DNA of 64,000 nt from Stegostoma tigrinum (taxonomy: Eukaryota), in assembly GCF_030684315.1 (NCBI RefSeq), contig NC_081374.1, forward strand, positions 27,073,978-27,137,977, in the 5' to 3' direction. The position numbers were made by a program, and so were the translations under genes. Each line of letters starts with the position of its first letter. Position 1 is the stretch's first letter. Positions 1-59,523 of this stretch are shown here, one piece after another. A model generated the notes under the pieces. The model searched no databases. It saw only the letters and a program-made list of their open reading frames with translations, and was not told the origin of the DNA.

Positions 1-2090
1 AAGTTTAAAAATGGGGTAATTTGGAACATTACACAATGACGCACAGTAAATTCAAGAATAACTTCCTTTATAAAAGGAAAAACTAATGAACTGAAGACCA
101 TCTTAAAAGCTTAACAGTCATCTTTTCTAAACCAGCAAAAGGTAAGACCTGCAATAAAGTATTACCTCACATTTGCCACTTCTGGCAAAGCATAATAAAT
201 CATTCACAGATGTCCAGGTAATTAAAGAAAGAAAGTGACTGTGGCTGCTGACTCTTTATTCAAAGCTTAAGATCAAAAGAAGAAATACAATCTAAATTCC
301 AAACCATGTCACATGGTGCATCCACAGAAGCAAAATAAGTGGTATTTTTGTCTGAAGTCTTTCATCAACTATCAACAGAGCCTGAAAGATTCTGAATGCT
401 TCTCAATCCAGTTTGATAAATCCATCAATATGGCCAACATAGCCCAGGTGTTTGTGATGTCCTTAAAACCCATGTGCACAAAAAAAACAAAGAAAGAAGA
501 TCTTCACCCTTTTACCCCTTAAAAGGGAGGAGGATATCCATAATGAATTCGAAAGGTATATGCTAGAAAAAAACTATTCCAATCAAGAAAATATTTTTAT
601 CACACCTGAAGATTAAGTCATATTTGGCACAAATGCAGGTTGTTACATTTTGCAGAAATTATCTTCATTCTTTTTTTGAAAATCAACTAACAAGCATTAT
701 CAAAAAAATTATAGATATTTTTCATGCAATGAAAATTGTTAATTTTGTAAATATAATTTCACCACCACTCAGTTTAATCCTCGCTCAACGAACTGAATGC
801 TACCCATGGTAAACTAAGATACCAAGAATTGCAGATGCTCGAGTCAGAGGATAAGAGTGTGGAGCTGGAGGAACACAGCAGGTCAGGCAGCATCAGGTGA
901 GTAGGAAAGTCAACTTTCCTACCACTCTGATGCTGCCTGACCTGATGTGTTCCTCCAGCTGCAGTGTGTCAACCATAGCAAACTAATCCTATGTGTTGAA
1001 ATGAGGTGATTAAGTAACGGAAAGGTGCTGCAAAGACTTTTTAGATCTGATGTCTAAAATTGTCAATTTTCTTAAAATCAAGGAGGACTGAAATGTATAG
1101 TTAGCTGCCAGACAATGCACAATTAATTGACTTCAGGTTCTTTAATAACTTAAAGCTGACCCGTGGGGAAACCATGTGATCAAAGTTGCAAATGCAATTA
1201 AATTGAAAGTCAGTCTGTGGCCCTCCCAATTAATAAATAAAATGCCGGAACGCTTACAGCTCAGAGGAAATACTAGGGAAAAAAAACACCAAATGACAAA
1301 GAAAACAAATGTTCACCCATTAAATCTGTGCACACCAGAGGAATTCAACAGATAACTTCAGGAATTAGATGCAATGGACCATATCATGTCAGTCTCAAAT
1401 CCATTCCTTCTAGCAGACACTGGTGGGCTGGCTTCCAAATTCAATCATGTGTTTGCTTTACAAAACAGTGGAGTTAACATGGAGATAATTAACATGCAAA
1501 GTGATATTGAACTGAAGGTCACATTAGAGGGACAGCGATCTTCGAAGACTCAAAGACAAACATTCCCCGTCATCCTGCACTTTTAAAATTAAAGCTTACT
1601 TTGGTTCCACATACCTGAGACAACGCTCTCTCAAACAAACATTATCAAGTTAAAGAATCACATCTGCCTCTCAGATATGCATTTGTTAGGCTGTACACAA
1701 CTAGTAGCCTCAAACTACACCTCAGATTTCAAGGAACTGGCAGATAATGTGTAACTGTAGAGGTCACATTGAGACTTGAGCAGAGAACAAAGTGAATAAT
1801 TATATATATAATTGATTTAAAATTTATGGAGTAAAGCAAAGCTGTTTATGCTAACGTGGCTAGATAGCCCAGGGCCCAAATGGCTAGGCCAGAAACCAAG
1901 ATGGCCAACCTCTGAGCTGCCAGTCCCGATGGGACTTTCAGGAAGGGTGAAATGCAATCCATCTGCACAAGACAGGCAGGCAAGGGCAAGCCCAAGCTGT
2001 CTCTGAAAAACAAGGCCTGTTTGTATATTGGAGGCATAAATGAAACTTGTCATGGTTGGCAAGACGTAACAAGTGGTTTTCCCACCCCGT
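1..2090 (+). mobile_element. Decayed hAT (Charlie/SPIN/GTF2IRD2-like) DNA transposon
   Basis: Frameshifted fragments read FSIQFDKSIN (FSLQxDESTD), LILCVEMR*LSNGKVLQR (LLLHTEVRWLSRGKVL) and AYFGSTYL...NYTSDFKELAD...SH* ending ~1772 (hAT dimerisation domain). Possible TIR remnant TTCCCACCCC near 2080-2090. The left end may extend outside the window. Confidence 0.8.
818..972. mobile_element. Short fold-back PLE terminus inserted in the hAT transposase
   Basis: Inverted repeat gctggaggaacacagcaggtcaggcagcatcag / ctgatgctgcctgacctgatgtgttcctccagc. TSD ccatggtaaactaa 804-817 / ccatagcaaactaa 973-986. Removing the insert restores ...NATHGKLILCVEMR. Confidence 0.85.
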
Positions 2091-2149
2091 CCCCCCAGGG
2101 ATTGATGCTAGAACCTCAGCTGTTCAATGATTTACATAGATGATAGGAG

Positions 2150-3120
2150 GTTTGTTTGTGGAATTTGCCAGAGTGACAAATACATAAGACAGTAAGTTGT
2201 AAAGAGGACAAATGGAGGCTACAAAAAGATATAGATGGGTTAAGTGAATGGGGAAGGATACAGCAAATAGGATAGAACATAGAACATAGAACATAGAACA
2301 GTACAGCACAGAACAGGCCCTTCAGCCCACAATGTTGTGCCGACCATTGATATAATGTGGAAAAATGTGAGGTTGCCCATTTTGGCACAAAATTATGAAA
2401 ACAGCATATTATCTAAACAATGAGAGATGCAGAGTGCTAAAATGCTTTAGTGATGTGCGCCCTCACGCATGAAATCATAAATTAGTGTGCAGATACAGCA
2501 AGTACCTAGGAAAGGACATGAATTATCTTGAGGGGGTGGAACACAAAAGCAGGGATTTATGCTTCAGTTATACAAATACCGATGTGACTGTATTTGTAGT
2601 ACTTTGCAAAATCACCTTCATCAAGAACGTAAATTGACTGCAAGCAGTTCATAGAAGGCTTCCCAGACAATTACTGTGAATGCAAGGTTTGCCTTGAGGA
2701 AAGGTTGGAAGGTTAGTCTTGTAGCGACTGGAATTTAGTATAGTAAGAGCATCCTGACTGTAATTTAAGATCCTGAGGGCTCTTGACTAGGTAAATGTGG
2801 AGAGGATGTTTCTTCTAATGGGATTATTTTAGACAGGGGTCACTGTTTAAGAATCAGCCATCACATTTAAAAAGAGAGAGGTGAATCAGAATTTCTCAGA
2901 GGGCCACGTGTCTTTGGAACTCACCCTGAAAAGATGTTAGAAGCAGAATCCTTGAATATTTTTGCGGTCTAGATACAATCTTATTAAGCAAGACGGTGAG
3001 AGGTCATCAGGCTAAGCAGGAATGCGGATTTGAGATTATAACCAGATACCTTGATCTTATTGAATAGCAGAGCAGGTTAGTGGGATGAATGGACTATCCC
3101 TGCTCCAAATTCATAATTTC
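2150..3120 (+). mobile_element. Decayed CR1 LINE 3' fragment with a nested minus-strand CR1-type tail at ~2272-2346
   Basis: Recognisable CR1 RT C-terminal and 3' UTR similarity to other copies in the window. The nested piece has a (TAGAACA)n tail. Confidence 0.75.
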
Positions 3121-3199
3121 AAATGGATGTTTGTATTGCATGCTTAAAACAGATGGTTCATTTTTCTGGTGTAACAAAATCAAAACTCCTCTACAAGAA

Positions 3200-3336
3200 C
3201 AAAACCAAGTTACTGGAAAAGCTCAGCAGGTCTGGCAGCTGTGAGGAAAAAAAAAGGTAACGTTTCGGGTCTGGTGACCCTTACTTGGAACATGTTTTTT
3301 TGTTTCTGATTCACAGCATCTGCAGTTCTTTCGGGC
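3200..3336. mobile_element. Short inverted PLE terminus (family B)
   Basis: Perfect 14-bp TSD ctcctctacaagaa at 3186-3199 and 3337-3350. A minus arm with hammerhead-like GGGTCACCAGACCCGAAACGTT is followed by only the terminal ~45 nt on plus. Confidence 0.85.
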
Positions 3337-4854: not shown

Positions 4855-6637
4855 ATCAGTGATAACGGGAACTGCAGCTGCTGGAGAATCCAAGATAAAG
4901 TGTGAAGCTGGATGATCACAGCAGGCCAAGCAGCATCTCAGGAGCACAAAAGCTGACGTTTCAGGCCTCGACCCTTCATCAGAGAGGGGGATGAGGAGAG
5001 GATTCTGGAATAAATAGGGAGAGAGGGGGAGGCACACCGAAGATGGAGAAAAGCTGATAGGTGAAGGGGAGAGTATAGGTACGGAGGGAATAGGTCAGTC
5101 CAGGGAAGTCGGACAGGTCAAGGAGGCGGGATGAGGTAGGAGGTAGGAAATGGAGATGCAGCTTGAGGTGGGAAGGAAGGGATGGGTGAGGGGAAGAACA
5201 GGTTCGGAAAGCGGAGACAGGCTGGGCTGGTTTTGGGATGCAGTGGGGGGAGGGGACGAGCTGGGCTGGTTTTGGGATGCAGTGGGGGAAAGGGGAGATT
5301 TTGAAGCTTGTGAAGTCCACATTGATACCATTGGGCTGCAGGGTTCCCAAGCGGAATATGAGTTGCTGTTCATGCAACCTTCAGGTGGCAACACTGTGGC
5401 ACTTCAGGAGGCCCATGATGGATATGTCATCTGAGGGAGGAGGGAGTTAAAACGGTTCGCGACTGGGAGGTGCAGTTGTTTACTGTGAACCCATCAGAGG
5501 TGTTCTGCAAAGCAGTCCCCAAGCCTCCGCTTGGTTTCCCCAATGTAGAGGCAGCCACACCGGGTACAATGGATACAATACACAACATTGTCAGATGTGC
5601 AGGTGAACATCTGCTTAATATGGAAAGTCATCTGGGATGGGGGTGAGGGAGGTGGTGTGGGGGCAAGTGTAGCACTTCCTGCGGTTGCAGGGGAAGGTGC
5701 TGGGTGTGGGGGGGTTGGAGGGGGGTGTGGAGCGGACAAGGGAGTCATGGAGAGAGTGGTCTCTCCAGAAGGCAGACCAGGGTGGGGATGGAAAAAAGGC
5801 TTGGGTAGTGGGGTCAGATTGTAGATGGCGGAAGTGTCGGAGGATGATGCGTTGTACCCGGGAGGTTGGTGGGGTGGTATGTGAGAACAAGGGGCATCCT
5901 CTTGGGGTGGTTGTGGTGGGGGCAGGGCGTGAGGGATGTGTTGCGGGAAATACGGGAGACGCGGTCAAGGGCGTTCTCGACCACTGTGGGGGGAAAGTTG
6001 CGGTCCTTGAAGAACGCGGACATCTGGGAGGTGCAGGAGTGGAATGCCTCATCCTGGGAGCAGATGCGGCAGAGGCGGAGGAATTGGGAATAGGGGATGG
6101 AATTTTTGCAGGAGGGTGGGTGGGAGGAGGTGTATTCTAGGTAGCTGTGGGAGTCAGTGGGCTTCAAATGGACATCAGTTTCTAGCTGGTTACCTGAGAT
6201 GGAGATTCAGAGGTCCAGGAAGGTGAGGGATGTGTTGGAGATGGCCCAGCTGAACTTGAGGTTGGGGTGGAATGTGTTGGTGAAGTGGATGAACTGTTCA
6301 AGCTCCTCTGGGGAGAAAGAGGTGGCACCGATACAGTCAATGCAACGGGGAGGAAGAGGTGGGGTTTGGGGCCTGTGCAGGTGCGGAAGAGGGGCTGTTC
6401 CACGTAACCTACAAAGAGGCAGGCATGGCTGGGGCCCATGCGGGTACCCATGGCCACCCCCTTTGTCTGCAGGAAGTGGGAGGAATCAAAAGAGAAGTTG
6501 TGGAGGGCGAGTATGGGTTCGGCTTGGCGGCTGAGGGTGTCGGTGGAGGTGGATTGATCGGACCTGCAGGACAGGAAGTGGAGGGCCTAGAGGCCTTCTG
6601 TGTGAGGGATACAGGTGTACAGGGACTGGACGTTCAT
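4855..6637 (-). mobile_element. Penelope-like element (Neptune-like, family A), left arm of a 4.1-kb head-to-head inverted insertion
   Basis: Frameshifted RT pieces (MNVQSLYT, AMGTRMGPS, KPTDSHSYL), Cys linker CNRRKCYTC, GIY-YIG VVYCIHC...LYIGET. Complete 3' terminus at 4855. Confidence 0.93.
4952..4984 (-). ncRNA. Minimal type I hammerhead ribozyme-like motif in PLE terminus
   Basis: Minus strand CT-CTGATGA-AGGGTCGAGGCCT-GAAAC-GTC-AG: both catalytic boxes, a stem II, a palindromic ACGT stem III and a GUC site. Activity untested. Confidence 0.7.
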
Positions 6638-8935
6638 CAAATGCCTCAACCTCTCCACCCCTCTCACCCACTCGATCCTCTCCCCCACAGAACGGGCAGC
6701 CCTCCACTCCTTCCGCTCCAACCCCAACCTCACCATCAAACCCGCAGACAAGGGAGGCACAGTGGTAGTATGGCACACTGACCTCTACACCGCCAAGGAC
6801 AAACGCCAACTCTCCGACACCACCTCCTACCGCCCACTTGATCATGACCCCACCCCCGAGCACCAAACCATCATCTTCAACACCATCCGTGACCTCATCA
6901 CCTCAGGGGACCTCCCACCCATAGCCTCCAACCTTATTGTTCCCCAACCCCACGCGGCCCGTTTCTATCTCCTTACCAAAATCCACAAACCTGCCTGCCC
7001 TGGTCGACCCATTGTCTCAGCCTGTTCCTGTCCCACCGAACTCATGTCCACCTATCTGGGCTCCATTTTCTCCCCTTTGGTCCAGGAACTCCCTACCTAC
7101 GTCCGTGACACCACCCACACCCTCAACCTCCTCCAGGACTTCATATTCCCTGGCCCCCAACAACTCATTTTCACCATAGACGCGCAGTCCCTATACACCG
7201 GTATTCCTCATGCAGTAGGCCTCAAGGCCCTCCGCTTCTTCCTGTCCCGTAGGCCCGAACAATCCCCCACCACCGACACCCTCATCAGCCTAGCCGAACT
7301 CGTCCTCACACTCAACAATTTCTCTTTCGATTCCTCCCATTTCCTACAGACTAAGGGGGTGGCCATGGGTACCTGCATGAGCCCAAGCTATGCCTGCCTC
7401 TTTGTAGGTTACATAGAACAGTCCCTCTTCCACACCTACACAGGCCCCAAACTCCAACTCTTCCTCCATTACATTGATGACTGTATCGGCGCCGCCTCTT
7501 GCTCCCCAGAGGAGCTTGAACAGTTCATCCACTTCACCAACACCTTCCACCCCAACCTCAAGTTCACCTGGGCCATCTCCAACACATCCCTCACCTTCCT
7601 GGACCTCCGAGTCTCCATCTCAGGTAACCAGCTAGAAACTGATGTCCATTTGAAGCCCACTGGCTCCCACAGCTACCTAGAATAGACCTCCTCCCACCCA
7701 CCCTCCTGCAAAAATTCCATCCCCTATTCCCAATTCCTCCGCCTCTGCCGCATCTGCTCCCAGGATGAGGCATTCCACTCCTGCACATCCCAGATGTCCA
7801 CGTTCTTCAAGGACCGCAATTCTCCCCCCCACCCCGCAGTGGTCGAGAACGCCCTTGACCACGTCTCCCACATTTCCCGTCATACGTCCCTCACACCCCG
7901 CCCCCGCCACAACCGCCCCAAGACGATGCCCCTTGTTCTCACATACCACCCCACCAACCTCCCGGGTACAACGCATCATCCTCCGACACTTCCGCCATCT
8001 ACAATCTGACCCCACTACCCAAGCCATTTTTCCATCCCCACCCTGGTCTGCCTTCTGAACAGACCATTCTCTCCATGACTCCCTTGTCCGCTCCACACTT
8101 CCCTCCAACCCCGGCACCTTCCCCTGCAACCACAGGAAGTGCTACACTTGCCCCCACACCACCTCCCTCACCCCCATCCCAGGCCCCAAGATGACTTTCC
8201 ATATTAAGCAAATGTTCACCTGCACACCTGACAATGTGGTATACTGTATCCATTGTGGCTTCCTCTACATTGGGGAAACCAAGCGGAGGCTTGGGGACTG
8301 CTTTGCAGAACACCTGACGGGTTCGCAATAAGCAACGGCACCTCCCAGTCGCAAACCATTTTAACTCCCCCTCCCATTTCTCAGACATGGCCATCGCCAT
8401 CATGGACCTCCTGCAGTGCCACAATGATGCCACCCAAAGGGTGCAGGAACAGCAACTCATTCCGCTTGGGAACCCTGCAGCCCAATGGTATCAACGTGGA
8501 CTTCACAAGCTTCAAAATCTCCCCACTGCATCCCAAAACCAGCCCAGTTCTTCCCCTTGCCCCAGAGCATCACAAAACCAGCCCAGCTCATCCCCTTCCC
8601 CACCATCCCCCCACTGCATCCCAAAACCAGCCCAGCCTGTCTCCGCTTCCCTAACCTGTTCTTCCTCTCACCTATCCCCTCCTCCCACCTCAAGCCGCAC
8701 CTCCATTTCCTACCTACTACCTCATCCCGCCTCCTTGACCTGTCCGTCTTCCCTGGACTGACCTATCCCCTCCCTACCTATACTCTCCTCTCCACCTCCC
8801 CCCTCTCCCTATTTATTCCAGAACCCTCACCCCAGCCCCTGCTCTGATGAAGGGTCTAGGCCCAAAACGTCAGCTTGTGCGCTCTGGAGATGCTGTTTGG
8901 CCTGCTGAGTTCGTCCAGCTTCACGCTTTGTTATC
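6635..8935 (+). mobile_element. Penelope-like element (family A), right arm; RT ORF 6615..7685 plus frameshifted GIY-YIG endonuclease
   Basis: 356-aa ORF with IKPADKGG, KIHKP..GRPIVS, DAQSLYT, GVAMG and YIDD. Reverse complement of the left arm over ~1.75 kb. TSD agtgactcaaaaatagt 4838-4854 / agtgattcaaaaaaatagt 8936-8954. Confidence 0.93.
8841..8874 (+). ncRNA. Degenerate hammerhead motif of the right PLE arm
   Basis: GCT-CTGATGA-AGGGTCTAGGCCC-AAAAC-GTC-AGC. The GAAA box is mutated to AAAA, consistent with CpG decay. Confidence 0.6.
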
Positions 8936-9391
8936 AGTGATTCAAAAAAATAGTCAGCTTGTCTCATTTGATCATGCAATCAAAAAAATAAACCTTTTCT
9001 TGCAGCCTTTTCAATAATGTATATTAATAGCAGCAACACAAAAATATAGTGAGAAATAATACAACCAACTCATTTGAAAAGTAATTCAGGAAAGGCTAGG
9101 AGGACATTGCACAAGGCTACAAAGTCAGAAAAATCAATATCAAACTTGATATCCTCCATGATTTCATAATTTTACTAGAACTATCGCTACCCTATTTTGC
9201 AAACAAAAAAGTAGCCATAACAAATCCAACTTTTGGGTTACTGACTACTTTTGCTTTAAAATAAGTTGACTTGCTTAATGAATTGTGTTGGTTAAAGAAA
9301 TGAAATAGATAACAATCTTGCTACATGAAGTCCCGTGTTGGCAAACAATAAGTCCACAAAAAGAATAAGTTTGTAAAGTGAGCACACTTAC

Positions 9392-10020: not shown

Positions 10021-10611
10021 AGCGAGTTTTGGAGAAGATTTGTAGCTCAGGTTGAGGTTCTGGATGTGAGTTTGCTCACCGAGCAGGAAGGTTCGTTTTC
10101 AGACGTTTCGTCACCATTCTAGGTAACATCAGTGAGCCTCCGGTGAAGCGCTGGTCTTATGTCCCGCTTTCTATTTACATGTTTAGGTTTCCTTGGGTTG
10201 GTGATGTCATTTCCTCTTTTTTTTCCCCCCTCAGGAGGATGGTAGGTAGGCTCCAAATCAGTGTTTGTTGACGGAGTTCCGGTTGGAATGCCATGCTTCT
10301 AGGAATTCTCATGCATGTCTCTGTTCAGCTTGTCCTAGGAAGCCAAACACAGACACGCACGAGAATTCCTAGAAGCATAGCATTCCAACCGGAACTCCAT
10401 CAACAAACACTGATTTGGAGCCTACCTACCATCCTCTGAGGGGGGAAAAAAAAGAGGAAATGACATCACCAACCCAAGGAAACCTAAACATATAAATAGA
10501 AAGCGGGACATAAGACCAGCGCTTCACCGGAGGCTCACTGATGTTACCTAGAATGGTGACGAAACGTCTGAAAACGAACCTTCCAGCTCGGCGAGCAAAC
10601 TCACATCCGGT
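10021..10611. mobile_element. ~590-bp palindromic PLE insertion (Poseidon-like, family C) in MAPK14 intron 2
   Basis: Arms 10062-~10335 and ~10336-10608 are near-perfect reverse complements. They encode the GIY-YIG C-terminal motif AREFLEAWHS, as also seen at 46470-46730. TSD catcacattt 10011-10020 / catcacgttt 10612-10621. Confidence 0.9.
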
Positions 10612-12661: not shown

Positions 12662-12842
12662 GCAGTCTGTCTCCTCTCCACCATCCATTTTCTATCCAAA
12701 CACCCCCCCTCCCTATTTATTTCAGAATCCCCTTCCCCCTCTCCCATTTCTGAAGGAGGGTCTAGGCTCAAAACGTCAGACTTCCTGCTCCCACAATGCT
12801 GCTTGGCCTGCTGTGTTCGTGTAGCTCTGCACCTTGTTATCT
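12662..12842 (+). mobile_element. PLE family A 3' terminal fragment (short-end type)
   Basis: Matches 8790-8935. Degenerate hammerhead CTGAAGGAGGGTCTAGGCTCAAAACGTC. Ends at accttgttatct. Confidence 0.8.
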
Positions 12843-16200: not shown

Positions 16201-16626
16201 CAAAAACAAAGTTGCTGGAAAAGCTCAGCAGATCTGGCAGCATCTGTGAAGAAGAAAACAGTTAACATTTTGTGTCCAGTGACCCTTCATCAGAACTGGT
16301 GGTGGCTAGGAAAGCATCAGAATTCACCCTCCCAACCCAATCGTTAGCAACTCCTTTGTCTGTCCAACTGTTTCTCTCTCTCTCTTTCTCCCCCCCACCA
16401 CCCCCCACGCTCTATCCTAACATTTACTCCCCACCCCAGCCACCTCCCTATTTCCTGCATATAAAAACTTACGTTTTCCCTGCCATGATCAGTTCTGAGG
16501 AGGGGTCACTGGACCTGAAATGTTAACTGTTTTCTCCTTCAAAAACGCTGCCAGACTTGCTGAGCTTTTCCAGGAACTTCTATTTTTGTTCCTGATTTAC
16601 AGTATCCGCAGTTCTTTTGCTTTTTA
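16201..16626. mobile_element. Fold-back PLE terminus (family B)
   Basis: 16201-16310 is the reverse complement of ~16475-16588. Hammerhead-like CTGA(T/G)GA..GGGTCACTGGAC..AAATGTT in both arms. The right arm has ~36 extra terminal nt. TSD weak. Confidence 0.85.
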
Positions 16627-18523: not shown

Positions 18524-18897
18524 AACAGAGATGAACACAGCAGGCCAAGCAGGAAAGCTGACATTTTGGGCCTGGACCCTTCTTCAGAAACGGGGGAAGA
18601 GGAAGGGGGTTCTGAAATAAATAGACAGAGGGGAGCAGCAGATAGAAGATGGATAAAGGAGAAGTTAGGTGGAGACGACTGGTCTGTCTCCTCTCCGCCT
18701 ATCTTCTCCTTTATCCATCTTCTATCCAGCCCCCCTCTCTCCCTATTTATTTCATAAGCCCCTTCCCCATTTCTGGGGGGGGGGGGGGGGGGGGTCCAGG
18801 CCCAAAACGTCAGCTTTCCTGCTCGGCCAGCTGTGTTTATCCAACTCGACACCTTGTTATCTCAGATACTCCGGCATCTGCAGTTCCTACTATCTCT
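18524..18897. mobile_element. Fold-back PLE terminus (family A)
   Basis: Inverted arms centred ~18680. TSD cacccccactgaagt 18509-18523 / cacctccactgaagt 18898-18912. Confidence 0.88.
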
Positions 18898-20704: not shown

Positions 20705-21140
20705 TCCTGTCCATCCTGGGCCTCCTCCAGTGTCACAATAACACCAGCAAACTGGAGGAGCAGCACCTCATATTCCACCTCGGGAGCCTAATGCCTAAAG
20801 GCCTAAACATGGATTTTACTAGTTACAAAATCTTCCACCCCCAGCCACATCCACACCTCCTTAACATGACACAACTTGTCCATCTTCTCTCCCACCTATC
20901 CACCCCACTGACCAATCCCCACCACTCCCTACCTACATTCACCTATCACCAACCACCTACCTTCCCCAGCCCCATCCATCATCTCTATTTATTGATCTCT
21001 GTTCCCCCTCCCCATTTCTGAAAGTGTCCCAACCTGAAACATCAACTTTCCTACTCCTTTCATACTACCTAGCCTGCTGTGTTCCTCCAGCTCCATACTG
21101 TTATCCTCTAACTCCAGCATCTGCAGCTCTTGGTATCTCT
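20705..21140 (+). mobile_element. PLE 3' fragment with complete terminus; a partial direct copy lies at 19462-19623
   Basis: GIY-YIG C-terminus (KLEEQHLIFHLGSLMPKGLNMDF), then 3' UTR and the terminal ...ccagcatctgcagctcttggtatctct. Confidence 0.8.
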
Positions 21141-29783: not shown

Positions 29784-29927
29784 GATAACTAGGTGTGGGG
29801 CTGACATTTCGTCTAAGCCTGAAACATCAGCCTTCCTGCTCCTCTGATGCTGCTTGGCCTGCTGTGTTCATTCAGCTCTAATCTTGTTATCTCAGATTCT
29901 CCAGCATCTGCAGTTCCTACTATCTCT
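29784..29927. mobile_element. Short PLE family A terminus with a ~20-nt inverted arm
   Basis: Left stub gataactaggtgtggggctg is the reverse complement of cagctctaatcttgttatc. TSD ctgccaagacctat 29770-29783 / ctgttaagacctat 29926-29939. Confidence 0.8.
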
Positions 29928-31589
29928 GTTAAGACCTATCATGGATTTTACTACATTTAATATATCCATGGATTTGCTGTACTGGCAAATGTGTATATGA
30001 TAATAATAGCAAATAAATGTATGTGCATTCACCACAACACATCACAGCATCTCAGGGCATCATGGGCTGATTGCAAATGATGAAACAACATTACTAGACA
30101 AGCTGACTTATCAACTCACCAGTACCATCCAGCAATGTGACCCAAACACCACCACAAGCACATTAAACAGTACCCCAAGAAATGCCCTGCCAAATGGATA
30201 TTGGATCCTTCAGCAGCTGTCACTCTGAAAAAAAACTACTTTAGATGGTGCTCATCATCATAACCAATTGTGTGAAAAGAAAGTAAGTGACTAACACAAA
30301 TGAGATATCATGCAAAATCAATGCCACAGATAGAGAAGAAATCTAATTTGCAGGCAGAACTAATTTGTCATACTCTTTAATTTCAGTTAAACAATGCATT
30401 AGTTGCCCACAATTAGCTTCCCAATGTTGCAGTCAAAAAAATCACTTAAATTTTCGTATTTCCAAAATGAAAACACCCACGATCTGCTTCTGCACAGCGA
30501 CTTGTTAAGTTTAAAATACTCAGTATTGACACCCAAGCTTCTCAAATCAGAGCGTTGGTAGAACATCAGGACTATTTCAGCCACTGACCCAAGCAGTGAA
30601 GGGTATTCTTTTACTTGCATGATGAATATTGTAGACAGATAGGCATCTATCGGAAGCGTAATGAAATCAATATTTGTGATGCTCAGCACTCGCGTTTACA
30701 TATATATGCACATTTTCCATTTGTGTTTCTGTTTGTTCATAAGGAACCTTAGAGGGTCAACAATCTCAAACTTGACCAAATTTTGTCACTCATCTTTTCA
30801 CATTTTTTCAATTGGTAGAAATGATCCACCTCATTTGTATAAGTCCTTCCGCAACACTACCCAACTCTGTAAGCATCTAGTTCCATACTCCAGCCGTCAT
30901 TGCTGCAGTTAGGCTCCTATTGACCCCACAATTCTACTCCACTGCTAATGGTAGCATTTCATAGTTTTAAACAAAAGCCGTTAGCGAAGAATGTGAATTT
31001 AAGGCTCACGTTAGGTTGAAAAGGATCGCAAGATTCATATTTAATACTCATATACAAAAATAAGAAACTATCCAAATTGTGCAAATCATTAAGTTATAAA
31101 CTGCTATCAAACTACTCGTTATTTCAGTACTGTGCCTATATGGCGAAGCAAGCTACAAAAGGGTCGAAAGCAATGCCGTTCAACAATAGAATTTAGTCAA
31201 TAAAAGTATTCCCATGAAAATGAAACTTGCAACTATAAATGCAATAAAGAGCAATTATTGTGGTTAAGAGACAATCGCTGTATCGACTGAAAGGATTAGA
31301 CATGCTATCAATATACCACAGGGTTTAGAATCAATCCACAAGGGAAACTGATCGGTTAAAATCCAATGGCTTTTCTTAATAAAAACCGGAATTAGAACTA
31401 TACAGTAAACTTTCACTGCTGCTTTACCCCTTTTGTTGCACACGGTAGGCGGCCTCAACAGTGGAGAAAACCAATGCATCATGCAAAAAGTTACTGAGCA
31501 ATTTGTTTTTGACTAGAGTTGAACACGTTTTGTCAAGCCCGCTTAAAGATTTTGCACACAGAAAACGTTAAAAAGTGCAATGCGTGCAC

Positions 31590-32480: not shown

Positions 32481-32491
32481 GCGTTTTAATA

Positions 32492-38300: not shown

Positions 38301-38611
38301 ACAGAGATAGTAGGAACTGCCAAAGCTGGAGAATCTGGGAATACAAGGCGTAGAGCTGGATGAACATGGCAGGCCAAGCAGCGTTGGACGAGCAGGAAAG
38401 CTGATGTTTCGAATCAAGACCCTTCTTCAGAAATGGGGTAGGAGAAGGGGATTCTGAAATAAATAGGGAGAGGGGGCAGTGCGGATAAAAGATGGATAAA
38501 GGAGAAGATAGCTGGAGAGGAGACAGGCAGGTCAAAGAGGCGGGGTTGGAGCCAGTAAAGGTGAATGTAGGTGGGGAGTTAGGGAGGGGATAGGTCGGTT
38601 CAGGGAGGATG
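38301..38611 (-). mobile_element. PLE family A single-arm terminus with full 3' end
   Basis: TSD atttcattgtt 38290-38300 / 38612-38622. Hammerhead-like CTGAAGAAGGGTCTTGATTCGAAACATC. Confidence 0.85.
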
Positions 38612-40449: not shown

Positions 40450-40870
40450 AGAGATAGCAAGAACTGCAGATGCTGGAAGTCAGAGTCAGTACATTAGGGA
40501 ACTGGAGGAATAAAGCAGGCCAGGCAGCAACAGAGGAACAGGAAAGTCAGTATTTCTGGCCAGGACCCTTCATCATCAGTCCTGACAAAGGGTCCTGACC
40601 CGTAAGGTTGATTTGCTTGTTCCTTTGATGCTGCCTGACCTGCTGTGTTCCTCCAATTTTAAATAAAAACCAAAAGAACTGTGGATGCTGTAAATCAGGA
40701 ACAAAAACTGAAGTTGCTGGAAAAGCACAGCAAGTCTGGCAGTATCAGAACCTGAGGAAAGGTCACCAGACCCGAAACGCTAACTCTGATTTTTTTGTTC
40801 ACAGATGCTGCCAGAAATGCTGAGCTTTTCCGGCAACTTCTGTTTTGTTCCTCCAATCTTAACACCGGAT
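40450..40870. mobile_element. Nested fold-back PLE termini: family B hairpin (40663-40847) inserted in an older family A-like hairpin
   Basis: Inner TSD ttcctccaattttaa 40648-40662 / ttcctccaatcttaa 40848-40862. Each element has its own inverted arms. Confidence 0.85.
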
Positions 40871-42660: not shown

Positions 42661-44603
42661 CATGGTGTAGAGCTGGATGAACACAGCAGGCTAAGCAGCA
42701 TCATAGGGGCAGGAAAGTTGCTGTTTCGGGCCTAGACCCTTCTTCAGAAATGAGGGAGGGAAGGGGTTTCTGAAATAAATAGAGAGAGGGGGGAGGCGGA
42801 TAGTAGATGGATAGACGATAGGGGGAGAGCAGACAGACTGGTCAAAGAGGCGGGGATGGACCCTGTAAAGGTGAGTGTAGCGGGGGAGGTAGGGAGGAGA
42901 TAGGTCAGTCCAGGGAGGAGGGACAAGTCAAAGGGGGTGGGAAGATATTAGTAGGTAGGAGATGGGGTTGGGGCTTGAGGTGGGAGGAGGGGATAGGTGG
43001 GAGGAAGGACAGGTTAGGGAGATGGGGATGAGCTGGGCTGGTTTTGGGATGTGGTGGGGAGGGGAGATTTTGAAGCTTGTGAAGTCCACATTGATACCAT
43101 TGGGCTGCAGGGTTCCCAAGCTGAATATGAATTGCTGTTCCTGCAAATTTCAGGTAGTATTGTTGTGGCACTGCAGGAGGCCCAGGATGGACATGTCATC
43201 CTAGGAATGGGAGGGGGAGTTGAAATGGTTTGCGACTGGGAGGCGCAGTTGTTTAGTGTGAACTGAGCATAGGTGTTCTGCAAAGCCGTTCCCAAGCCTC
43301 TGCTTAGTTTCCCCGATGTACAGGAGGCCGCAATGCAAACAGCAGATGCAATATACCACATTAGCAGATGTGCAGGTGAACATCTGCTTGATGTGGAAAG
43401 TCTTCCTGGGGCCTGGGATGGGGGTGAGGGGGGAGGTGTAGGGGCAGGTGTAGCACTTGCTGCAGTTGCAGGGAAAAGTGCTGGGTGTGGTGGGCCTGGA
43501 AGGGAGTGTGGAGCAGACAAGGGAGTCACAGAGATAGTGGTCCCTCCAGAAGGAAGGTAAGGGTGGGGAGGGAAAAATGTCTTTGTTGGTGGGATCGGAT
43601 TGCAGATGGTGGAAGTGTTGGAGGATGATGCGTTGGATTTGGAGGTTAGTGGGGTGGTACGTGAGGATGAGGGGGATTCTAGTTTGGTTTTTATTGCGGG
43701 CGGTGTGAGGGATGAGTTGCAGGAAATGCGGGAGACATGTTCGAGGGCGTCCTCGACCACTGAGAAGGGGAGGTTGCAGTACTTAAAAAATGAGGACATC
43801 TGAGATGTACGGGAGTGGAATGCCTTATCTTTGGAGCAGATGCAGCGGAGGCAAAGGAATTGGGAATAAGGGATGGCATTTTTGCAGGAAAGTGGGTGAG
43901 AGGAGGTGTATTCTAGGTAGTTGTGGGAGTCGATGGGCTTGAAATGGACATCAGTTACAAGCTGGTTGCCGGAGATGGAGACAGAGAAGTATTAGAAATG
44001 GACCAGGTGAACTTAAGGTTGGGGTGGAAGGTGTTAATGAAGTAGATGAACAGTTCGAGCTCCTCTTGAGAGCATGAGGCGGTGCTGATATAGTCATCAA
44101 TGTAACAGAGGAAGAGGTGAGATTTAAGGCCAGTGTAGCTATGGAAGAGGGATTGTTCCACCTAACCTAAAAAAAACAGGCATAGCTTGGGCCCATGCAG
44201 GTACCCATGGCCACCCCCTTTGTCTGTAGGAAGTGGGAGGAATTGAAAGAGAAGTTGTTGAGGGTGAGGACGAGATCGGCTAAGCTGATGAGGGTGTCAG
44301 TGGAGGGGGACTGGTTGAGCCTGCGGGACAGGAAGAAGTGGAGGGCCTTTAGGCCATCTGTATGGGGAATGTAGGTGTATAGAGACTGGATGTCCATGGT
44401 AAAGATGAGGTGTTGTGGACCGGGGAATTGGAAGTTCTGGAGGAGGTGGAGGGTGTGGGTGGTGTCACGGACGTAGGCAGGGAGTTCCTGGACCAAGGGA
44501 AAGAAAATGGAGTCGAGATAGGTGGAGATAAGTTCGGTGGGGCAGGAGCAGGCGGAGACAATGGGTCGACCAAGGCAGTCAGGCTTGTGGATTTTGAGAA
44601 GGA
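42661..44603 (-). mobile_element. PLE family A, 5'-truncated 1.9-kb copy (RT + GIY-YIG), short-end type
   Basis: KIHKPDCLGRPIVS, MDIQSLYT, YIDD and LYIGETKQRLG. Hammerhead-like CTGAAGAAGGGTCTAGGCCCGAAAC. TSD aactactggacaa 42648-42660 / aactacttgacaa 44604-44616. Confidence 0.9.
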
Positions 44604-46394: not shown

Positions 46395-46732
46395 CATTCA
46401 GACCAGAATGCCTACAGTTGTAGACCTGCTGGCCAAGCCGACATATTTGGCTGCAAACATTTTGTCACCCTACTGGGTAACGTTGTCAGTGCATCTCCAG
46501 TGAAGTGTTGGTGTTCTGACCCACTTGTTATTTATATGCCTCAGTTTGCTGGAGTGGTTGGCATTACTTCTGGTTCTGTTCTTCAATAGTTTGTATATCG
46601 GGTCCAGTTCAATGTGGGTGTTGATGGAGTTTTGGTTAGAATGCCAGACCTCCAGGAATTCCCTGGCATTCTGTTTGGCTTGTGCTATTATGGATGTATT
46701 GTCCCAGTTGAATTGGTGTCCGTCATTGTCCG
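46395..46732 (-). mobile_element. PLE family C-like 3' fragment
   Basis: GHQFNWDNTSIIAQAKQNAREFLEVWHS (GIY-YIG C-terminus), followed by degenerate hammerhead CTGACAACGTTACCCAGTAGGGTGACAAAATGTT. Confidence 0.8.
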
Positions 46733-49397
46733 ACTGAATGAGGAGTCCCAGGAGTATGCTACAATTAAAACCCATAAATCTTTCTACCAATATACAAGAC
46801 TGCCATTTGGGGTATCGTCAGCTTGCACCCTTTTCCAGCAAACCATGGAGAACATTTTACAAGTGCTACCTCAGTTTGCCATTTATTTTAATGACATACT
46901 AATAACAGGGAAGACCAATAAAGAGCACTTGGAGAACTTAGACAAAGTGCTTAAATATTTCTCTCAGGCCTACTTGGGTTACAGAGTCAACAAAACCAGG
47001 TTACACCTGTTGGAAGGTTGAGAGGTCAGTCGAAGGAGTCCTGGCTCTCATGTCTCTACTGGATCTTACGTCTTCCCTTTGTTAATGAATTATTATAGAA
47101 AATTCATGCATACCCTGGCATCCATATTGGCTATTGAGAAAGGGTCAGCCTTGAAACTGGTCATGTAGCCAAGAAGCAGCCTTTAGGGAACTGAAAAAGC
47201 AGCTATCATCAGCTCAGATGTTGGCTCACTGTGATCCAAAGCAAGAGGTAGTGCTGACTTGCTATGCCTCCCTGTTCGGTATTGGAGTAGTGTTGGGCCA
47301 CTGGTGCCCCAGTAGAGAGGAATGCCTGATAGCATATGCCCAGATAGAGGAGGAAGGTTTAGTGGTCATCTTTGGTGTGAGGAAGTTCCACCAGTACCTT
47401 TACGGTTGAGAATTGTCATAGTAACAGATCATAAACCCCCGCTAGGATGACTGAAGAAAGTGACGGTAGTGCCACCCATTGCTTCCAGTAGAATTCAGCC
47501 ATGGGCCCTTACTGCCAGCTCATACAAGTACAAGTTAGAACACTGCCCAGGAAGCCAAGCAACTAATGCGGATGCCTTGGGCCGCTTCCCACGAGCAGGT
47601 ACTCCACCAGTGGTGCTACCCTGGAAGCATCCATTTTTGTTTTGAACTTCCTGGACACCCTTCCAGTCACTGCCAACAATATCTGACTGTGGACATAAAA
47701 AGATCCTGTCCTAGCGAAACTAAAACAGCTAGTGGTAATGGGGGTAACAGGAGGGCCACTGCAACCTGGATTGAAACCTTTCTGGACCCGGTGAGACCAG
47801 ATCACCATAGAGGACAGCAAATTACTATGGGAAGTGAGGGTGGTTGTCTCAAGTAAAGGTTGCGCCAGATACTGACTGCACTCCACCAGGATCATCCAGG
47901 GTTTTCCAAGATGAAGATGCTAGCAAGAAGCTATATCTGGTGACCAGGGTTGGATGCTGACATAGTTACATTAGTGAGACAGTGCTCAGAGTGCCAACAA
48001 GAACAAAAATTGGCACTAGCAACACCCCCAAATTTGTGGGAATGGCCGGGTAAACCCTGGACTCAGTTACATGTCACTACGCTGGCCCTTTCATGGACTC
48101 AATGTGGATGCCCATTCAAAGTGGTTGGACGTGTGCAAAGTTCATTTGGCAAACTCAGGGATGAGGATTGAGAAGCTGTGAGCATCGTTTGTAATACATG
48201 GATTCCTGGAAGTATTGGTCACAGACAATGGACATCATTTATAAGCAGGGAATTCGAATATTTCTTCAAGTCAAATGATATTTGACACATAAGAACAGCT
48301 CCATTCCATTCATCGTCCAATGGTCTAGTGGAAAGAGCAGTCCAAACATTGAAGGCAGGCTTAAAAAAACCAATCTACAGCATCAATTAACACCAAACTG
48401 TCCCAATTCCTGTTTGATTATAGGACCATACCACACTCAAAAACAGGAATAGGTCTAACAACGTTGCTAATGTGGAGAAGTCTCCGCATGAGGTTAAACC
48501 TGATATTCCGAGACCTGGGGGAAAGGTGAAACGGCAGAAGGAATGCCAGTGCTGGCCACAAGCTACCTCTAAGCAAGAGAGACAATTTATTTCATAGGAT
48601 GAAGTTTGGTGCCGGAATCATGGAAATGGCCCAATGGTATGAGGCGAGTTTGACGCAAGGTCAGGTCCCATCACTTGCAAAGTTCAGGTGGATGATACAG
48701 CCCTGAACAAAAATATGGATTGCCTAAAAGTCATTACTTTGCAAACAGGGCAGGAGCAAAACATACTTGGTCCCTCAGAATAGCCAGAAGGCCTGTGGGA
48801 AATGATAGGTTCTCCTCCTCCATTTACAGTTGATCAAACCTCAGAGTCTGAGATGGATGCAGCCTTGATACCATTACCACTAGAAGAAGAGGAGGGAATT
48901 CTCCTGAGATGTTCCAGGCGCAAGAGGCAGGCTATGGTCCAGTACAGCCATCCATGTCAGAGTTCAAAGCAGGGCAACCTGAGTTGAGGCAAAAACATTG
49001 CAAGAAAAGCTACAAGCCAAATACTAGGCCTACATCCTTGGACTTAGTCGGGGAGGCATGTAGTGATTTAGCACAAGGTTAACCTCATTAACTACAAGGT
49101 CGTTGGTCCAGGTTAACAACACCAATCAATCAGGAATGACCTAGCCGACCAATATAACCAGGAGAATTGCCCCTGCAGGGATCTGCTTGTCACTGGTTCC
49201 CTGGCCATGTGGGTGTGTTTCCTGGTGGTGGAATATTAATAAAGTTATTTATACAACTGGTTAAAAAAAACAATATAACCAGGAAATTAGCATCTCCTTG
49301 GTGCAAACAACTGACTCTGAACTGGCTGGTCATAGCCAGTGTACTGTACACAAGGGTGACTTGGTGACAGGATACTGGCCTCCATGTGATTATTTCA
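46733..49397 (+). mobile_element. Decayed Ty3/Gypsy LTR retrotransposon: RT-RNase H-integrase, PPT and 3' LTR (49059-49397)
   Basis: YQYTRLPFGVSSA...IYFNDILITG (RT); LTCYASLFGIGVVL and TDHKP (RNase H); HQDHPG..KMLARSYIW..CSEC, VTDNG and SSNGLVERAV (integrase). Purine tract GGGGAGG precedes TGTAGTG; the LTR ends TTATTTCA. Confidence 0.9.
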
Positions 49398-50351: not shown

Positions 50352-50645
50352 TCCCCACCTCCTTGACCTGTCCATCTTTCCTGGACTGACCAAGCCCCAA
50401 CCTAACTCCCCACCTGCACTCACCTTAACTGGCTCCATCCCTTCCTCCTTAACCTGTCTGTCTCCTTTCCACCTATCTGCTCCTTTATCTGTCTTCCATC
50501 CGCCTCCCCCTCTCTCTACCTATATCAGAACGACCTTCCCCTCCCCCATTTCAGAAGATGGGTCCAGACCTGAAACATCAGGTTTTCTGCTCCTCTGATG
50601 CTGCTTGGCCTGCTGTGTTCATCTAGCTCTACACCTTGTTATCTC
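50352..50645 (+). mobile_element. PLE family A terminal fragment (short-end type)
   Basis: Reverse complement of 42661-42940. Ends acaccttgttatct. Confidence 0.85.
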
Positions 50646-55700: not shown

Positions 55701-56560
55701 CCATAAGACCATAAGACATTCGGCCATCAAGTCCACTCTGCCATTTAATCATGGCTGATGGGCATTTCAACTCCACTTACCCGCACTCTCCCCATAGCCC
55801 TTAATTCCTTGTAAGATCAAGAAATTATCAATCTCTGCCTTGAAGACATTTAACGTCCCGGCCTCCACTGCGCTCCATGGCAATGAATTCCACAGGCCCA
55901 CCACTCTCTGGCTGAAGAAATGAGTCCTCATTTCCATTTTAAATTTACCCCCTCTAATTCTAAGGCTGTGCCCACAGGTTCTCGTCTCCCGGGCTAATGG
56001 AAACAACCTTGCAGTGTCCACCCTTTCTAAGCCATGCATTATCTTGTATGTTTCTATTAGATCTCCCCTCAACCTTCTAAACTCTAATGAATACAATCCC
56101 AGGATTCTTAGCCGTTCATCATATGTTAGGCCTACCATTCCAGGGATCATCCCTGTGAATCTCCGCTGGACACGGTCCAGTGCCAGTATGTCCTTCCTGA
56201 AGTGTGGGGCCCAAAATTTGACACAGTATTCTAAATGGGGCCTAACTAGTGCTTTATAAAGTCTCAAAAGCACATTGCTGCTTTTATATTCCAACCCTCT
56301 TGAGATAAGTGATAACATTACATTCGCTTTCTTAATCACGGACTCAACGTGCAAGTTAACCTTTAGAGAATCCTGGACTAGCACTCCCAGATCCCTTTGT
56401 ACTTCAGCTTTATGAATTTTCTCACCGCTTGGAAAATAGTCCATGCCTGTATTCTTACTTACAAAGTGCAAAACCTCGCATTTGCGCATGTTGAATTTCA
56501 TCAGCCATTTCCTGGACCACTGTCCTAAACTGTCCAAATCTTTCTACAGCCGCCCCATCT
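55701..56560 (-). mobile_element. Relatively young 5'-truncated CR1 with an open 256-aa ORF2 C-terminus (55767..56537)
   Basis: WLMKFNMRKC, LVRPHLEYC and YSLEFRRLRGDLI motifs. 3' UTR with a (TCTTATGG)2 tail at 55701-55717. Confidence 0.92.
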
Positions 56561-58249
56561 ATGAACTGAGAACTTAAAGGTAATTATAGCTGCAATATTT
56601 GCTACTTCTAATGATTCAAAAATACAACTACCTTATCATGGCCTCAGATTAAAACATTATGTCTCAAGGTCAACGAAATTGCTCCAAACTATGTATTATT
56701 TTATCTTCCCCTTGACGGGATACTTTCCCTTTTTAAATTTGCGCACGCATGTCCACATGACTGCACAGTGGTTGCATGCTTTGATATTGTGTCTTATAAT
56801 TTTTCCTGAGGTTACATGTAACAAAATTGCTTTTCCTTTCACCCAAGAAAATTGGCTCCTTATTGCATAAAGTGAAAACAGTTAATTATATTTTACCTGG
56901 CAAATGAATGGCATGTGCTAAAAATAAACTGGGATGGTTGAAAAGATGGAAGCTGATTCATTGCTCCTCACTTGGTCATAACGTACATTCTCAATTCAGT
57001 CCATTTTGCTGAGGGAATGAGAAAAGCCACTTACTGCTGCAAACTCCAGAGCACCCTCAGTTTCTGTCAGAATGCAAGATGTTATTTGTTTGCTCTAATA
57101 AAGTGCCTGGGTGTCCAGTTGGATGGATTTGGGCATTGCAGATTGGGCGATTGTTGTTCACATCCCCAGTAGTATTTATAGTGATATTAATAGTGATGAT
57201 GACCTTGACAGCCACTGTCAATGCATTTGTCTATGATTGCTAAATGACCCACTCCTGATTCTTTTATTGGAGACAGGATGGATGTTGGGGTGTGTTGACA
57301 ATTGGAAATCCTGCCACTGCATCTCAGGCAGAAGAGCAGGCTTTAAGCAATTGCATGCCTGACCTCCTTTGGTATTCTGTGCCTTCAATTGACATTGTAG
57401 TAATTTGTCATAACAAAGACTTTTGTGGACTGTAACCACATGTTTTCTATTTTAAGGACATGCACTGTTCTTTGAGAGTTGTTGCTTTGGTCTAATTTCA
57501 TGCATTTGAACTGGCCACACCCCTTAAATGGAGGCAAAGGACTTGTCTCGCTGCTTTTTGATGTCATCATTTGAACAAAAACAGCCCATCCTCACGTGTT
57601 GCCGATTTCCCAATTCTGGAACTGTAGCTGCACTTGATGTGGAAGAAAATTTTTTTGTTTGGCTTTCTTTCCTTATCAAAGATGTACACCACTACCAAAA
57701 TTGTTGTTAGAGATTTTCTTACTTTTGCCCACATAGATTTTAACAAAACTCATATACCAAGTGCTGTGATTGTAGAAAGCAGTTTCTAAATTTGTCCCAC
57801 AGACTACTTTTACATTTTGTACTGATGATTCAATTTCAGTCAGCAACAGGTAAAAATTAAGTGGCAACTGGCCTAAATCTGGAGGTGTTTAATTAGAACA
57901 CAGCTGCATTGCCTCATTCAGTATGTTTGTTCTGGATAATGTTCTTCATCTACAAACTGAAAGCATCAATGTGAATTATACTAGCCTAATCTCAGAGGAT
58001 AGTAAAAGGCAAATATATTTTGAAAGCTTTAGAACAGTTGACAGCAATCAGGAAATCTGAAATTCAAACTCTTTTCCTCCCACTAATAAAAAAGTACTGA
58101 AGTATTTTTGAGAACCATAATTTCCAATGCACAAGATTCAACATTGCATTTACCTGTATCAGGTTGAGATTTTTGAAAGTTGAATCAAATTAAGTGTGGA
58201 GTTACAGATTAATTTGGGAGTGTAAAACCCAAGGGCTAATTAAGCACAA

Positions 58250-58560
58250 TTTAAGATCATAGGATCACAAAAAGTAAGAACAGAAGTAACCCATATAGCT
58301 CCACAAACCTGTTCCATTTTTCAATAAGATCCTGGTTGATCATTTGTCTTAGCTCCACCTTCTTACTTGATCCAAATACCTCTCAATTTCCTAGAGTTCA
58401 AAAATCTGTTTGTCTTTAATATACTCAATAACTGAACATCCACAGACCTTTGTGACAGAGAACTCCAAAGATTCTCAAGTGAAAAATCTTCCTTATTTCA
58501 GCCTTTAATAGTGAGCCCTTGTTCTGAGAGTTTCTCCCCTAGTTCTGGACTCTCCAGACA
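58250..58560 (-). mobile_element. Decayed CR1 3' end
   Basis: CR1-type 3' UTR and tail (gatcatag.atcac) plus ORF2 terminal remnants. Confidence 0.6.
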
Positions 58561-58577
58561 GGATACAAACTTCTCAG

Positions 58578-58693
58578 ATAATAAAATGTGAGGCTGGATG
58601 AACACAGCAGGCCAAGCAGCATCCTGCTGTGTTCATCCAGCCTCACATTTTATTATCTTGGAATCTCCAGCATCTGCAGTTCCCATTATCTCT
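58578..58693. mobile_element. Minimal fold-back PLE insertion (116 bp)
   Basis: Perfect 36-bp inverted repeat 58576-58611 / 58623-58658. Perfect 16-bp TSD gatacaaacttctcag 58562-58577 / 58694-58709. Confidence 0.92.
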
Positions 58694-59523
58694 GATACAA
58701 ACTTCTCAGTTTATTTCAGACAGCATCCACTTCTAACAACAGTTGATGCTGATCTATATAGTTTTATTTTCAAAAATCTCTTCTGCCTATAAATGAATTC
58801 AGAAATAGAACTGTATGCCAAAGGTTTTTGAAAAAAAAGCTATCACCTGTATAACAATAAAAGCAATAATGTGTATAGAACTGCACAACCAGCAATTACT
58901 CATACAAACATAACACAATGTCTGAACAAATTCTCAAAATTCTTCTCCCTTTATTTTAATGTATTAATTCTTTATCTTAAACTTAGTGCCTCTACAAAAA
59001 TAACAGAAAAGAAATAGCACTCCAAATTTTTATGCAATTTTCCACTAATATTATAGCAGTAATTCCTGGAATTAAGCTTAAATATGCCTTCCATCAGATA
59101 TCAGTAAAACAAAATGCAATCATTTCAGTAATAGAAAGTATTCTGAAGTTTTGTGCCAGTCTCTAAGCTGAAGTTCCATGTGGCTGAAATAGAACTTGGT
59201 GAATCTGTAATCCAAACAACAAGGGGCAGAACATTATGATATTATGGCTATTGTCAATTGGGCAAGTTTCATTGAAAGTTTCTCTCTGTAACACCTAGTG
59301 AGATTTCTCACCACATTGTCACTATTCACTGTGACACACACTGGAAAACAAGCTCCATTATTCCCAAGAGTCATCATAGAAGTTAAAGCTTTTTAAAAGT
59401 GCTCAAAATTCTCTAATTTACTCACCTTCTAGATCCGTGTTTACAGAAAGCACAGACTAGGTTTCTGTACTTAACAAAAGCTACAATTTACTGTCAGTAA
59501 TTAGACTCCAGCAATAGGCAACC

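Follow-up and report, generated by a model that had tools for sequence, protein, structure and literature searches.

Penelope-like elements (PLEs) have repeatedly inserted as fold-backs into a repeat-rich stretch of 64,000 nucleotides (the window) of the 3.2 Gb genome of Stegostoma tigrinum (NCBI RefSeq assembly GCF_030684315.1, contig NC_081374.1, positions 27,073,978 to 27,137,977 of the forward strand). In these insertions two arms of the element are joined at their 5' ends, with their 3' ends toward the flanks; one arm ends with a tail of 30–40 nt, while the other stops before it. The statistics of the ends and the concordance of the arms support a proposal made earlier from the DNA letters (the sequence-only reading), by which reverse transcription starts from both nicks in the target, at two defined sites, and its products are then joined. 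They also bear out that the arms duplicate the same sequence, unlike in L1 twin priming. Twin priming with an asymmetric geometry—two internal sites on one RNA element, followed by end joining—is considered the probable mechanism.

Ends of the arms and their pairing

All nine fold-backs listed by the sequence-only reading consist of two PLE arms in this arrangement (Table 1), and a tenth, absent from that list, lies at 40450-~40870. A credible target site duplication (TSD) of 9–19 nt flanks eight of the nine, the exception being 16201-16626, with only an 8-nt match containing one mismatch. The expected combination of one long and one short end is likewise found in eight; the left arm of 18524-18897 stops 56 nt short, probably due to a deletion. 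Among the single-arm copies assigned to the same two end points, those at 38301 (long) and 42661 (short) have a TSD, while it is weak at 12842 and not clear at 21140 and 50645.

The ends were quantified in the window plus four unselected 200-kb blocks (864 kb), where profile models placed 320 termini. The 3' ends are bimodal beyond chance, not continuous. The description of the offset between both end points as fixed at ~33–41 nt was overstated: it is a zone from 24 to 49 nt, with a median of ~35 nt in 45 family A pairs. One 33-mer of the young subfamily has 86,914 exact matches in the genome. Among the first 100 of them—an anchor that leaves out ends shorter than -37, counted from the long-end point—39 arms end at -37 to -31 and 59 at -7 to +12, with none between and two running through. 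Short ends spread over ~7 nt and long ends over ~19 nt, with 1–2 nt of overlap with the target, as for priming.

Long and short ends are paired almost strictly. At a TSD score of at least 9, support was obtained within 226 candidate outward-facing pairs for 50 of 138 long/short, 2 of 38 long/long, none of 36 short/short, and 2 of 14 other pairs (50/138 versus 2/74 same-type pairs, Fisher p=3e-9). The 50 include a spurious pair of the window, 32505-40657 (8 kb, 4 mismatches), which was dropped from the comparison of arms at the start site and retained in the subfamily-discordance set (both below). The two long/long pairs are artefacts, as one lies between tandemly duplicated segments and the arms of the other continue into the open reading frame (ORF) and are therefore not termini. 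By eye, exactly one arm is tailed in 29/29 young TSD-flanked two-arm insertions; their untailed arms end in the usual zone in 27 cases, at ~-48 in one (locus L211), and at ~-86 in another (L187). TSDs of 35 young loci measure 10–18 nt (mode 15), and nine young single-arm copies with a TSD comprise six long and three short ends.

The long end had been taken for the RNA 3' end, a claim that is not supported. Copies running past it hold conserved sequence and then, ~40 nt on, an ORF starting MPNLKKL; a motif spanning the long end has 424 exact genome matches, and long ends reaching +12 still match the continuation of the element. This match and the continuation into the ORF place both priming sites inside the element. 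Nineteen copies (L112-L130) pass the tail into the ORF start, and 11 of them leave it at +110 to +129, usually jumping to a pyrimidine-rich 3' untranslated region through a junction of their own, which gives non-autonomous units of ~290–350 nt. No splice signals were seen at these exits. Retrozyme-like head-to-tail arrays of hammerhead-bearing units (~310 and 293 nt) are also found (G000:C4:89989959-89991847; L129/L130).

The 5' ends pile up as well. Out of 61 young arms with a placed 5' end (37 longer and two run-through arms being excluded), 31 end within -6 to +6 of the hammerhead core (13 nt), with the mode at -4. In the unselected blocks, 69/136 arms of family A and 26/56 of family B end within -8 to +8 (17 nt), ~4 times the uniform expectation. 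Position -4 lies ~30 nt below TATTTAT in family A and TATAAAA in family B, the latter of which we take to be a TATA box, and in family B it is the A of TCAGTT, presumably an initiator-like motif; these TATA-like boxes may have a promoter role. The predicted ribozyme cut is a secondary peak only (5 of the 61 young arms, of which two derive from a single palindromic junction; 213 versus 132 pattern matches at the control site), so that a main 5' end at the cut was rejected. Splicing was also rejected as the source of the -4 peak, since the site lacks an AG and is preceded by variable sequence.

Arms ending at -4 are mostly preceded by a G where the element has a C, and the partner arm accounts for several of these. 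In work on long interspersed nuclear elements (LINEs), an extra untemplated G is the expected trace of cap copying. Genome-wide, on the antisense strand before -4, C followed by A has 1201 matches versus 467 for A or T together. With two following A's, counts by eye gave C71:A19:T10 in the first 100 of 325 matches, compared to C22:A69:T9 at a control site (132 matches, A being inflated by transitions) and C33:A45:T22 at the ribozyme cut (213 matches). The C:T ratio at -4 differs from that of the control (71:10 versus 22:9, p=0.049) and from that of the cut (p=0.0004). This excess of untemplated G suggests a capped RNA end, and the arms ending at -4 would represent run-off at a capped start.

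Regarding the relation between the arms, partners disagree at 6% of the subfamily-diagnostic sites versus 45% in random pairs; no discordant site is found in 53/71 pairs, and some pairs have private variants in common. The two arms of a pair almost always derive from one and the same copy of the repeat, either the 5' leader or the 3' repeat: in 32 pairs, 11 have both arms at the start site, 19 have both beyond the TATA box, and 2 are mixed (p=1e-6). In 12 pairs the short-ended arm reaches the start site while the tailed one falls short of it, and in 5 the reverse is found. Since either arm may hold sequence that is missing from the other, neither is a snap-back copy; each was made by reverse transcription, and usually one repeat copy was the source of both. 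Three loci (L211, L212, and L185) are each one TSD-flanked insertion with arms from different subfamilies.

The priming model and its rivals

In the favoured model, the GIY-YIG endonuclease would nick both strands of the target 10–18 nt apart, and each 3'-OH would prime complementary DNA (cDNA) within the element RNA: the upstream site would give the short end, and a site ~35 nt downstream the long end. Both cDNAs would extend toward the RNA 5' end and be joined head-to-head, with 0–4 nt of overlap or a few extra bases, and repair would leave the TSD; survival of only one cDNA would produce a single-arm copy with either end type. The site pair would be located in the 5' leader, ~97 and 132 nt from the putative capped start, itself 4 nt before the hammerhead core, and would be found again in the 3' repeat. 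The abundant 110–240 bp fold-backs would stem from priming in the leader, and the long arms from priming in the 3' repeat. Two-strand nicking and extension, as well as two internal starts, have been obtained in vitro by others. The use of the same copy of the site pair by both arms fits a dimer whose two reverse transcriptase (RT) protomers act on a single structured RNA element, and a dimer is probably the acting form.

A more far-reaching version, to which we give slightly less than an even chance, holds that PLE integration would be obligately asymmetric twin priming. The dimer would sit on one conserved RNA fold (a helix of 7–8 bp between the tail and upstream sequence), with the short site in the loop, the long site just 3', and each target strand assigned to a different site. 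The preferred template in vivo would be the capped 5' leader, copied from ~100–130 nt inside to the cap, or sometimes to the hammerhead cut. If so, one rule would account for the tail, for the inverted repeats, and for the abundance of tiny fold-backs across Neptune-type and Poseidon-type clades.

The RNA structure around the tail is a lead only. Over 7–8 bp, the middle of the tail is complementary to a stretch that lies upstream of the short site (GATGCTG/CAGCATC in families A and B; AGCTCRG/CYGAGCT in C), and a helix of at least 7 bp can be formed in 60/95 A, 4/23 B, and 2/5 C termini versus 2–5% in shuffles, an excess due for the most part to a single conserved motif in each family; the main helix exhibits little covariation within A and B. 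By eye, the published template of the Poseidon element PAc (PMC11167929) has a 7-bp match, CATGGCC/GGCCATG, around its upstream site, placed like GATGCTG/CAGCATC. Fig. S1 of that paper draws the region as a stem-loop and may already show the helix. A full two-helix pseudoknot is not claimed, as the second helix has 4 bp and a 1-nt linker, and minimum-energy folds vary by copy.

Several observations weigh against the favoured model. Family C contributes only 11 termini, 214 of the 320 termini were left unpaired, and the 63 adjacent pairs scored without the TSD include 5 long/long and 2 short/short pairs, besides 53 long/short and 3 others. Loci L190/L191 face each other as short/short with no TSD, and three ends are outliers, namely those of L211 and L187 and the window arm at 18524 (-56). 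The p-values of the 5' pile-up are overstated, because the arms of one insertion are not independent. The cap signal is marginal against the plain control, which has a C excess too, and both the start site and the cap are read from DNA alone. At least three subfamily sites are discordant in 6/71 pairs, L211 and L212 being the clearest, and these pairs need two templates or later gene conversion. Finally, among the joints listed for contigs of four DNA runs over 57500-59800, none skips the insertion at 58578, a result that is uninformative on the empty allele.

A first rival is twin priming on two RNAs from one source locus, held in an asymmetric dimeric particle, for example via a palindromic hammerhead helix, which departs from the favoured model in template number only. 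It accounts for mixed-subfamily arms in a few insertions, does not need two RTs copying the same stretch, and agrees with the proposal that minimal PLE hammerheads act as dimers (PMC4209133, in its accessible part). However, the 5' leader and the 3' repeat are mixed in just 2 of 32 pairs, most pairs lack any discordant diagnostic site (53/71) and some hold private variants common to both arms, and two independent RNAs offer no built-in cause for exactly one tail, which makes this alternative somewhat unlikely. An endonuclease-based origin of the asymmetry, in which a single start site is used and resolution then strips the tail from one end or adds it to one (suggested in PMC8557442, as far as its available text goes), is improbable. 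One tail per insertion is also predicted by it, and recognition by the D. virilis endonuclease depends on the tail according to PMC11167929; nevertheless, the two RT starts bracketing the tail were mapped directly in vitro in the latter work (in the portion available), and the spread of the ends and their overlap with the target, as mentioned above, are priming-like.

Self-priming has been proposed in print (PMC3846280, in the sections accessible): one arm would be reverse-transcribed, and its 3' end would snap back to prime a DNA-templated second arm, perhaps with an antisense template. The short palindromic junctions at L178, L192, and L147, the usual identity of subfamily in both arms, and the correlation of arm lengths are in line with it. 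Nonetheless, a copy cannot be longer than what it was copied from, and yet at least 12 pairs have a short-ended arm that reaches further 5' than its partner, while the tailed arm has a tail that is missing from the other; moreover, short ends occur alone with a TSD, and 5' ends stop at a sense-strand promoter position, all of which renders self-priming very improbable. Scarcely credible is the idea that the arms are two independent insertions, or that the fold-back is one unit amplified as DNA in the manner of miniature inverted-repeat transposable elements (MITEs). The very high copy number of the 33-mer and the recurrence of some junctions would suit it, but one TSD frames both arms, junctions vary by copy, and the arms are concordant in origin and subfamily.

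Family identity and features of the window

The elements exhibit the organisation of endonuclease-positive (EN+) PLEs: an RT with a DKG motif followed by a C-terminal GIY-YIG domain with an internal CxxC, a tandem or inverted pseudo-long terminal repeat (pseudo-LTR) arrangement with the tail, a hammerhead motif in the pseudo-LTR, and the short variable TSD described above. The endonuclease motif at 43201-43782 reads VVYCICCLHCGLLYIGET...H...H (internal CxxC, CCHH finger). Due to the decay of the copies, Pfam scores are under the cut-offs, and a PDB sequence search with the RT frame as query returned no match. Families A and B have terminal motifs in common and hold a finger in the RT–endonuclease linker, CNCSKCYTC in A and CNCRRCNIC in B (both CX4CxxC). 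A CX2-5CxxC linker finger is a mark of Neptune/Nematis and not of Penelope/Poseidon (PMC8557442, in its available text); on this sequence feature both families are classified as Neptune/Nematis-type, and their assignment to the Penelope/Poseidon clade was rejected. Family C, represented by fragments only, may be Poseidon-type; one decayed copy reads TYEIPCRNCDKHYSGQT, and the 40 residues before it lack any cysteine motif. The minimal hammerhead motif (core boxes and stem II) was found by eye upstream of the ends in all three families; an Rfam scan did not detect the hammerhead and gave only sub-threshold microRNA hairpins, on fold-backs.

Table 1. Features of the window related to PLEs, with window coordinates.
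Feature	Position	Strand	Details
Family A (old subfamily) fold-back	818..972		Long arm left (-), short arm right (+); TSD 804-817 / 973-986, 14 nt, 2 mismatches
Family B fold-back	3200..3336		Left arm short-ended, its 5' end at the putative start site; right arm with 48-nt tail; TSD 3186-3199 / 3337-3350, 14 nt exact
Family A long fold-back	4855..8935		Tailed arm 4855-~6628 (-), short-ended arm ~6606-8935 (+); arms 85.5% identical across 1.8 kb; TSD ~4838-4854 / 8936-8954, ~17-19 nt with A-run indel
Decayed PLE RT frame	6606..7685	+	ADKGG motif, YIDD; Pfam RVT_1 E=3e-06, under curated cut-off
TATA-like TATTTAT (family A)	8810..8816	+	34 nt upstream of hammerhead core; putative promoter element
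Minimal type I hammerhead motif (by eye)	8844..8871	+	CTGATGA, stem II, GAAAC, GTC; here a single core base is decayed
Family C (apparently Penelope/Poseidon-type) fold-back	10021..10611		Tailed left, short-ended right; arms 95% identical; TSD 10011-10020 / 10612-10621, 10 nt, 1 mismatch
Short-ended family A single arm	12663..12842	+	Weak TSD
Family B fold-back	16201..16626		Short left, tailed right; TSD unconvincing
Family B TATAAAA and TCAGTT	16460..16494	+	16460-16466 and 16489-16494, immediately before hammerhead core at 16495
Family A fold-back	18524..18897		Tailed right; left arm outlier; TSD 18509-18523 / 18898-18912, 15 nt, 1 mismatch
Tailed family A single arm	20708..21140	+	No clear TSD
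Family A fold-back	29784..29930		Tiny short arm left (~28 nt, internal deletion), tailed right; TSD 29775-29783 / 29931-29939, 9 nt exact
Tailed family A single arm	38301..38611	-	11-nt TSD
Old family A fold-back	40450..40870 (right end approximate)		Tailed arm left; split by family B insertion at 40663
Family B fold-back	40663..40846		Tailed left, short right; TSD 40646-40662 / 40846-40862, 17 nt, 1 mismatch
Short-ended family A single arm	42661..44603	-	13-14 nt TSD
Linker CX4CxxC and GIY-YIG with CxxC	43201-43782, inside 42661..44603	-	Pfam GIY-YIG E=0.011
Short-ended family C single arm	46427..46817	-	Carries endonuclease C-terminus
Short-ended family A single arm	50354..50645	+	No clear TSD
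Young family A fold-back	58578..58693		Short left, tailed right; TSD 58562-58577 / 58694-58709, 16 nt exact
Example family A tail (~36 nt), between short and long ends	58657..58693	+	Contains CAGCATC, complementary to upstream GATGCTG of longer arms

On the same contig, a fold-back at G000:C25:41390885-41391001 is 99% identical to that at 58578-58693, junction included, which may reflect a recurrent junction or a segmental duplication. PLEs are also nested in the terminal repeats of other PLEs, L175 being a family A copy within family B, at the hammerhead, and the window showing the converse, family B within family A (40450-40870). Divergent PLE termini beyond those listed earlier are found at 32502-32575 (-) and 37507 (-).

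With respect to the setting, a frame at 11906-12232 (-) includes a p38 MAP kinase exon, MAPK14 being the best PDB match (E=1e-19); insertions close to it are probably intronic. An inverted pair of 126 bp (22826-22947 and 23505-23630, 85% identical) is unrelated to PLE ends and resembles LINE 3' coding fragments, and a tandem of two ~290 bp copies (82% identical) lies at 35845-36423, where the hammerhead core was not found. An RT fragment of LTR-retrotransposon type (46590-47021, +; Pfam RVT_1 E=1.6e-12) has an open frame overlapping the family C fragment, which is on the other strand. Decayed LINE coding fragments, which we take to be CR1/L2-like, occur at 55767-56543, 62634-63993, and 27610-28308.

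Known systems and significance

In L1 twin priming, synthesis starts at the poly(A) end and at a variable internal site, and the inverted segments do not overlap. Like in L1, both target nicks would prime on element RNA, with the cDNAs joined through microhomology inside the TSD; unlike in L1, the two sites here are defined and both lie inside the element, and the same sequence is present in both arms. An L1-type event was rejected for these insertions because they have no poly(A) and their arms overlap in sequence. Non-LTR retrozymes (10.64898/2026.07.22.740005, in the part available) are also short hammerhead-bearing PLE derivatives, and tandem units of ~290–310 nt exist in this genome. However, retrozymes form head-to-tail arrays, whereas these insertions are head-to-head, TSD-flanked, and mostly arrayless, so that the window insertions were not assigned to them, arrays being found elsewhere in the genome; element ends are not treated in the available part of that preprint.

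The observation is real, and its core is already known, so that the novelty implied by the sequence-only reading was overstated; published work already describes the tail and the inverted arm, as well as a pair of internal start sites on both strands. The accessible parts of the papers on EN+ PLEs describe a head-to-head, 5'-truncated inverted copy, a 30–40 nt tail, and a short TSD, as here, with the tail continuous with the element 5' part in tandem copies and a promoter inside the pseudo-LTR (PMC8557442, PMC3846280, PMC2377424). Among them, PMC8557442 reports an inverted truncated copy with the tail often at one end only, and PMC3846280 a tail on one inverted repeat, inside the TSD, together with the antisense self-priming idea. 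The promoter in the pseudo-LTR, a 34-bp repeat, and dimeric minimal hammerheads are covered by PMC2377424, PMC4209133, and PMC8969392. In contrast to the near-strict single tail per two-arm insertion found here, these descriptions, as far as accessible, give the tail as optional or 'often' at one end, uncounted, and do not include the 5'-end pile-up, the untemplated G, or the same-copy origin.

The closest biochemical system is PAc from Anolis carolinensis (PMC11167929, in its accessible part), for which cleavage and extension of both strands, two internal RT starts bracketing the tail, a hammerhead ~90–125 nt upstream, and a predicted dimer have been described in vitro, matching what is observed or proposed for the insertions studied here. 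On the other hand, that paper finds no strand difference in the start site and leaves inverted arms unexplained, it found no RNA ends at the ribozyme cut, where a modest 5'-end excess is seen here, and the ORF ATG of family A appears ~40 nt downstream of the tail, not within the hammerhead; families A and B are, in addition, Neptune/Nematis-type. The steps after initiation are left unvalidated in it, and the origin of PLE tandem and inverted structures is named open in PMC8557442, each in its available text. In the literature covered, which did not extend to several older key papers, no paper was found stating strict one-tail pairing, PLE twin priming, or cap run-off, and no relevant account was found of Penelope with a pseudoknot, with cryo-EM since 2024, or with untemplated G or a cap. 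Within that same coverage, the pairing counts, the finding that either arm can be the longer one, the 5'-end stop with its G excess, and the same-copy origin were not found in print.

These counts favour twin priming over the published ideas of self-priming and endonuclease resolution, and they predict for the in vitro system that one site per strand would be used within a molecule, that the same RNA copy would serve both arms, and that run-off would occur at the capped end. The 110–240 bp hairpin insertions could be misidentified as MITEs or as precursors of microRNAs. PLE RTs and telomerase are sister groups, and an internal, structure-defined initiation would resemble the way in which telomerase uses its template.

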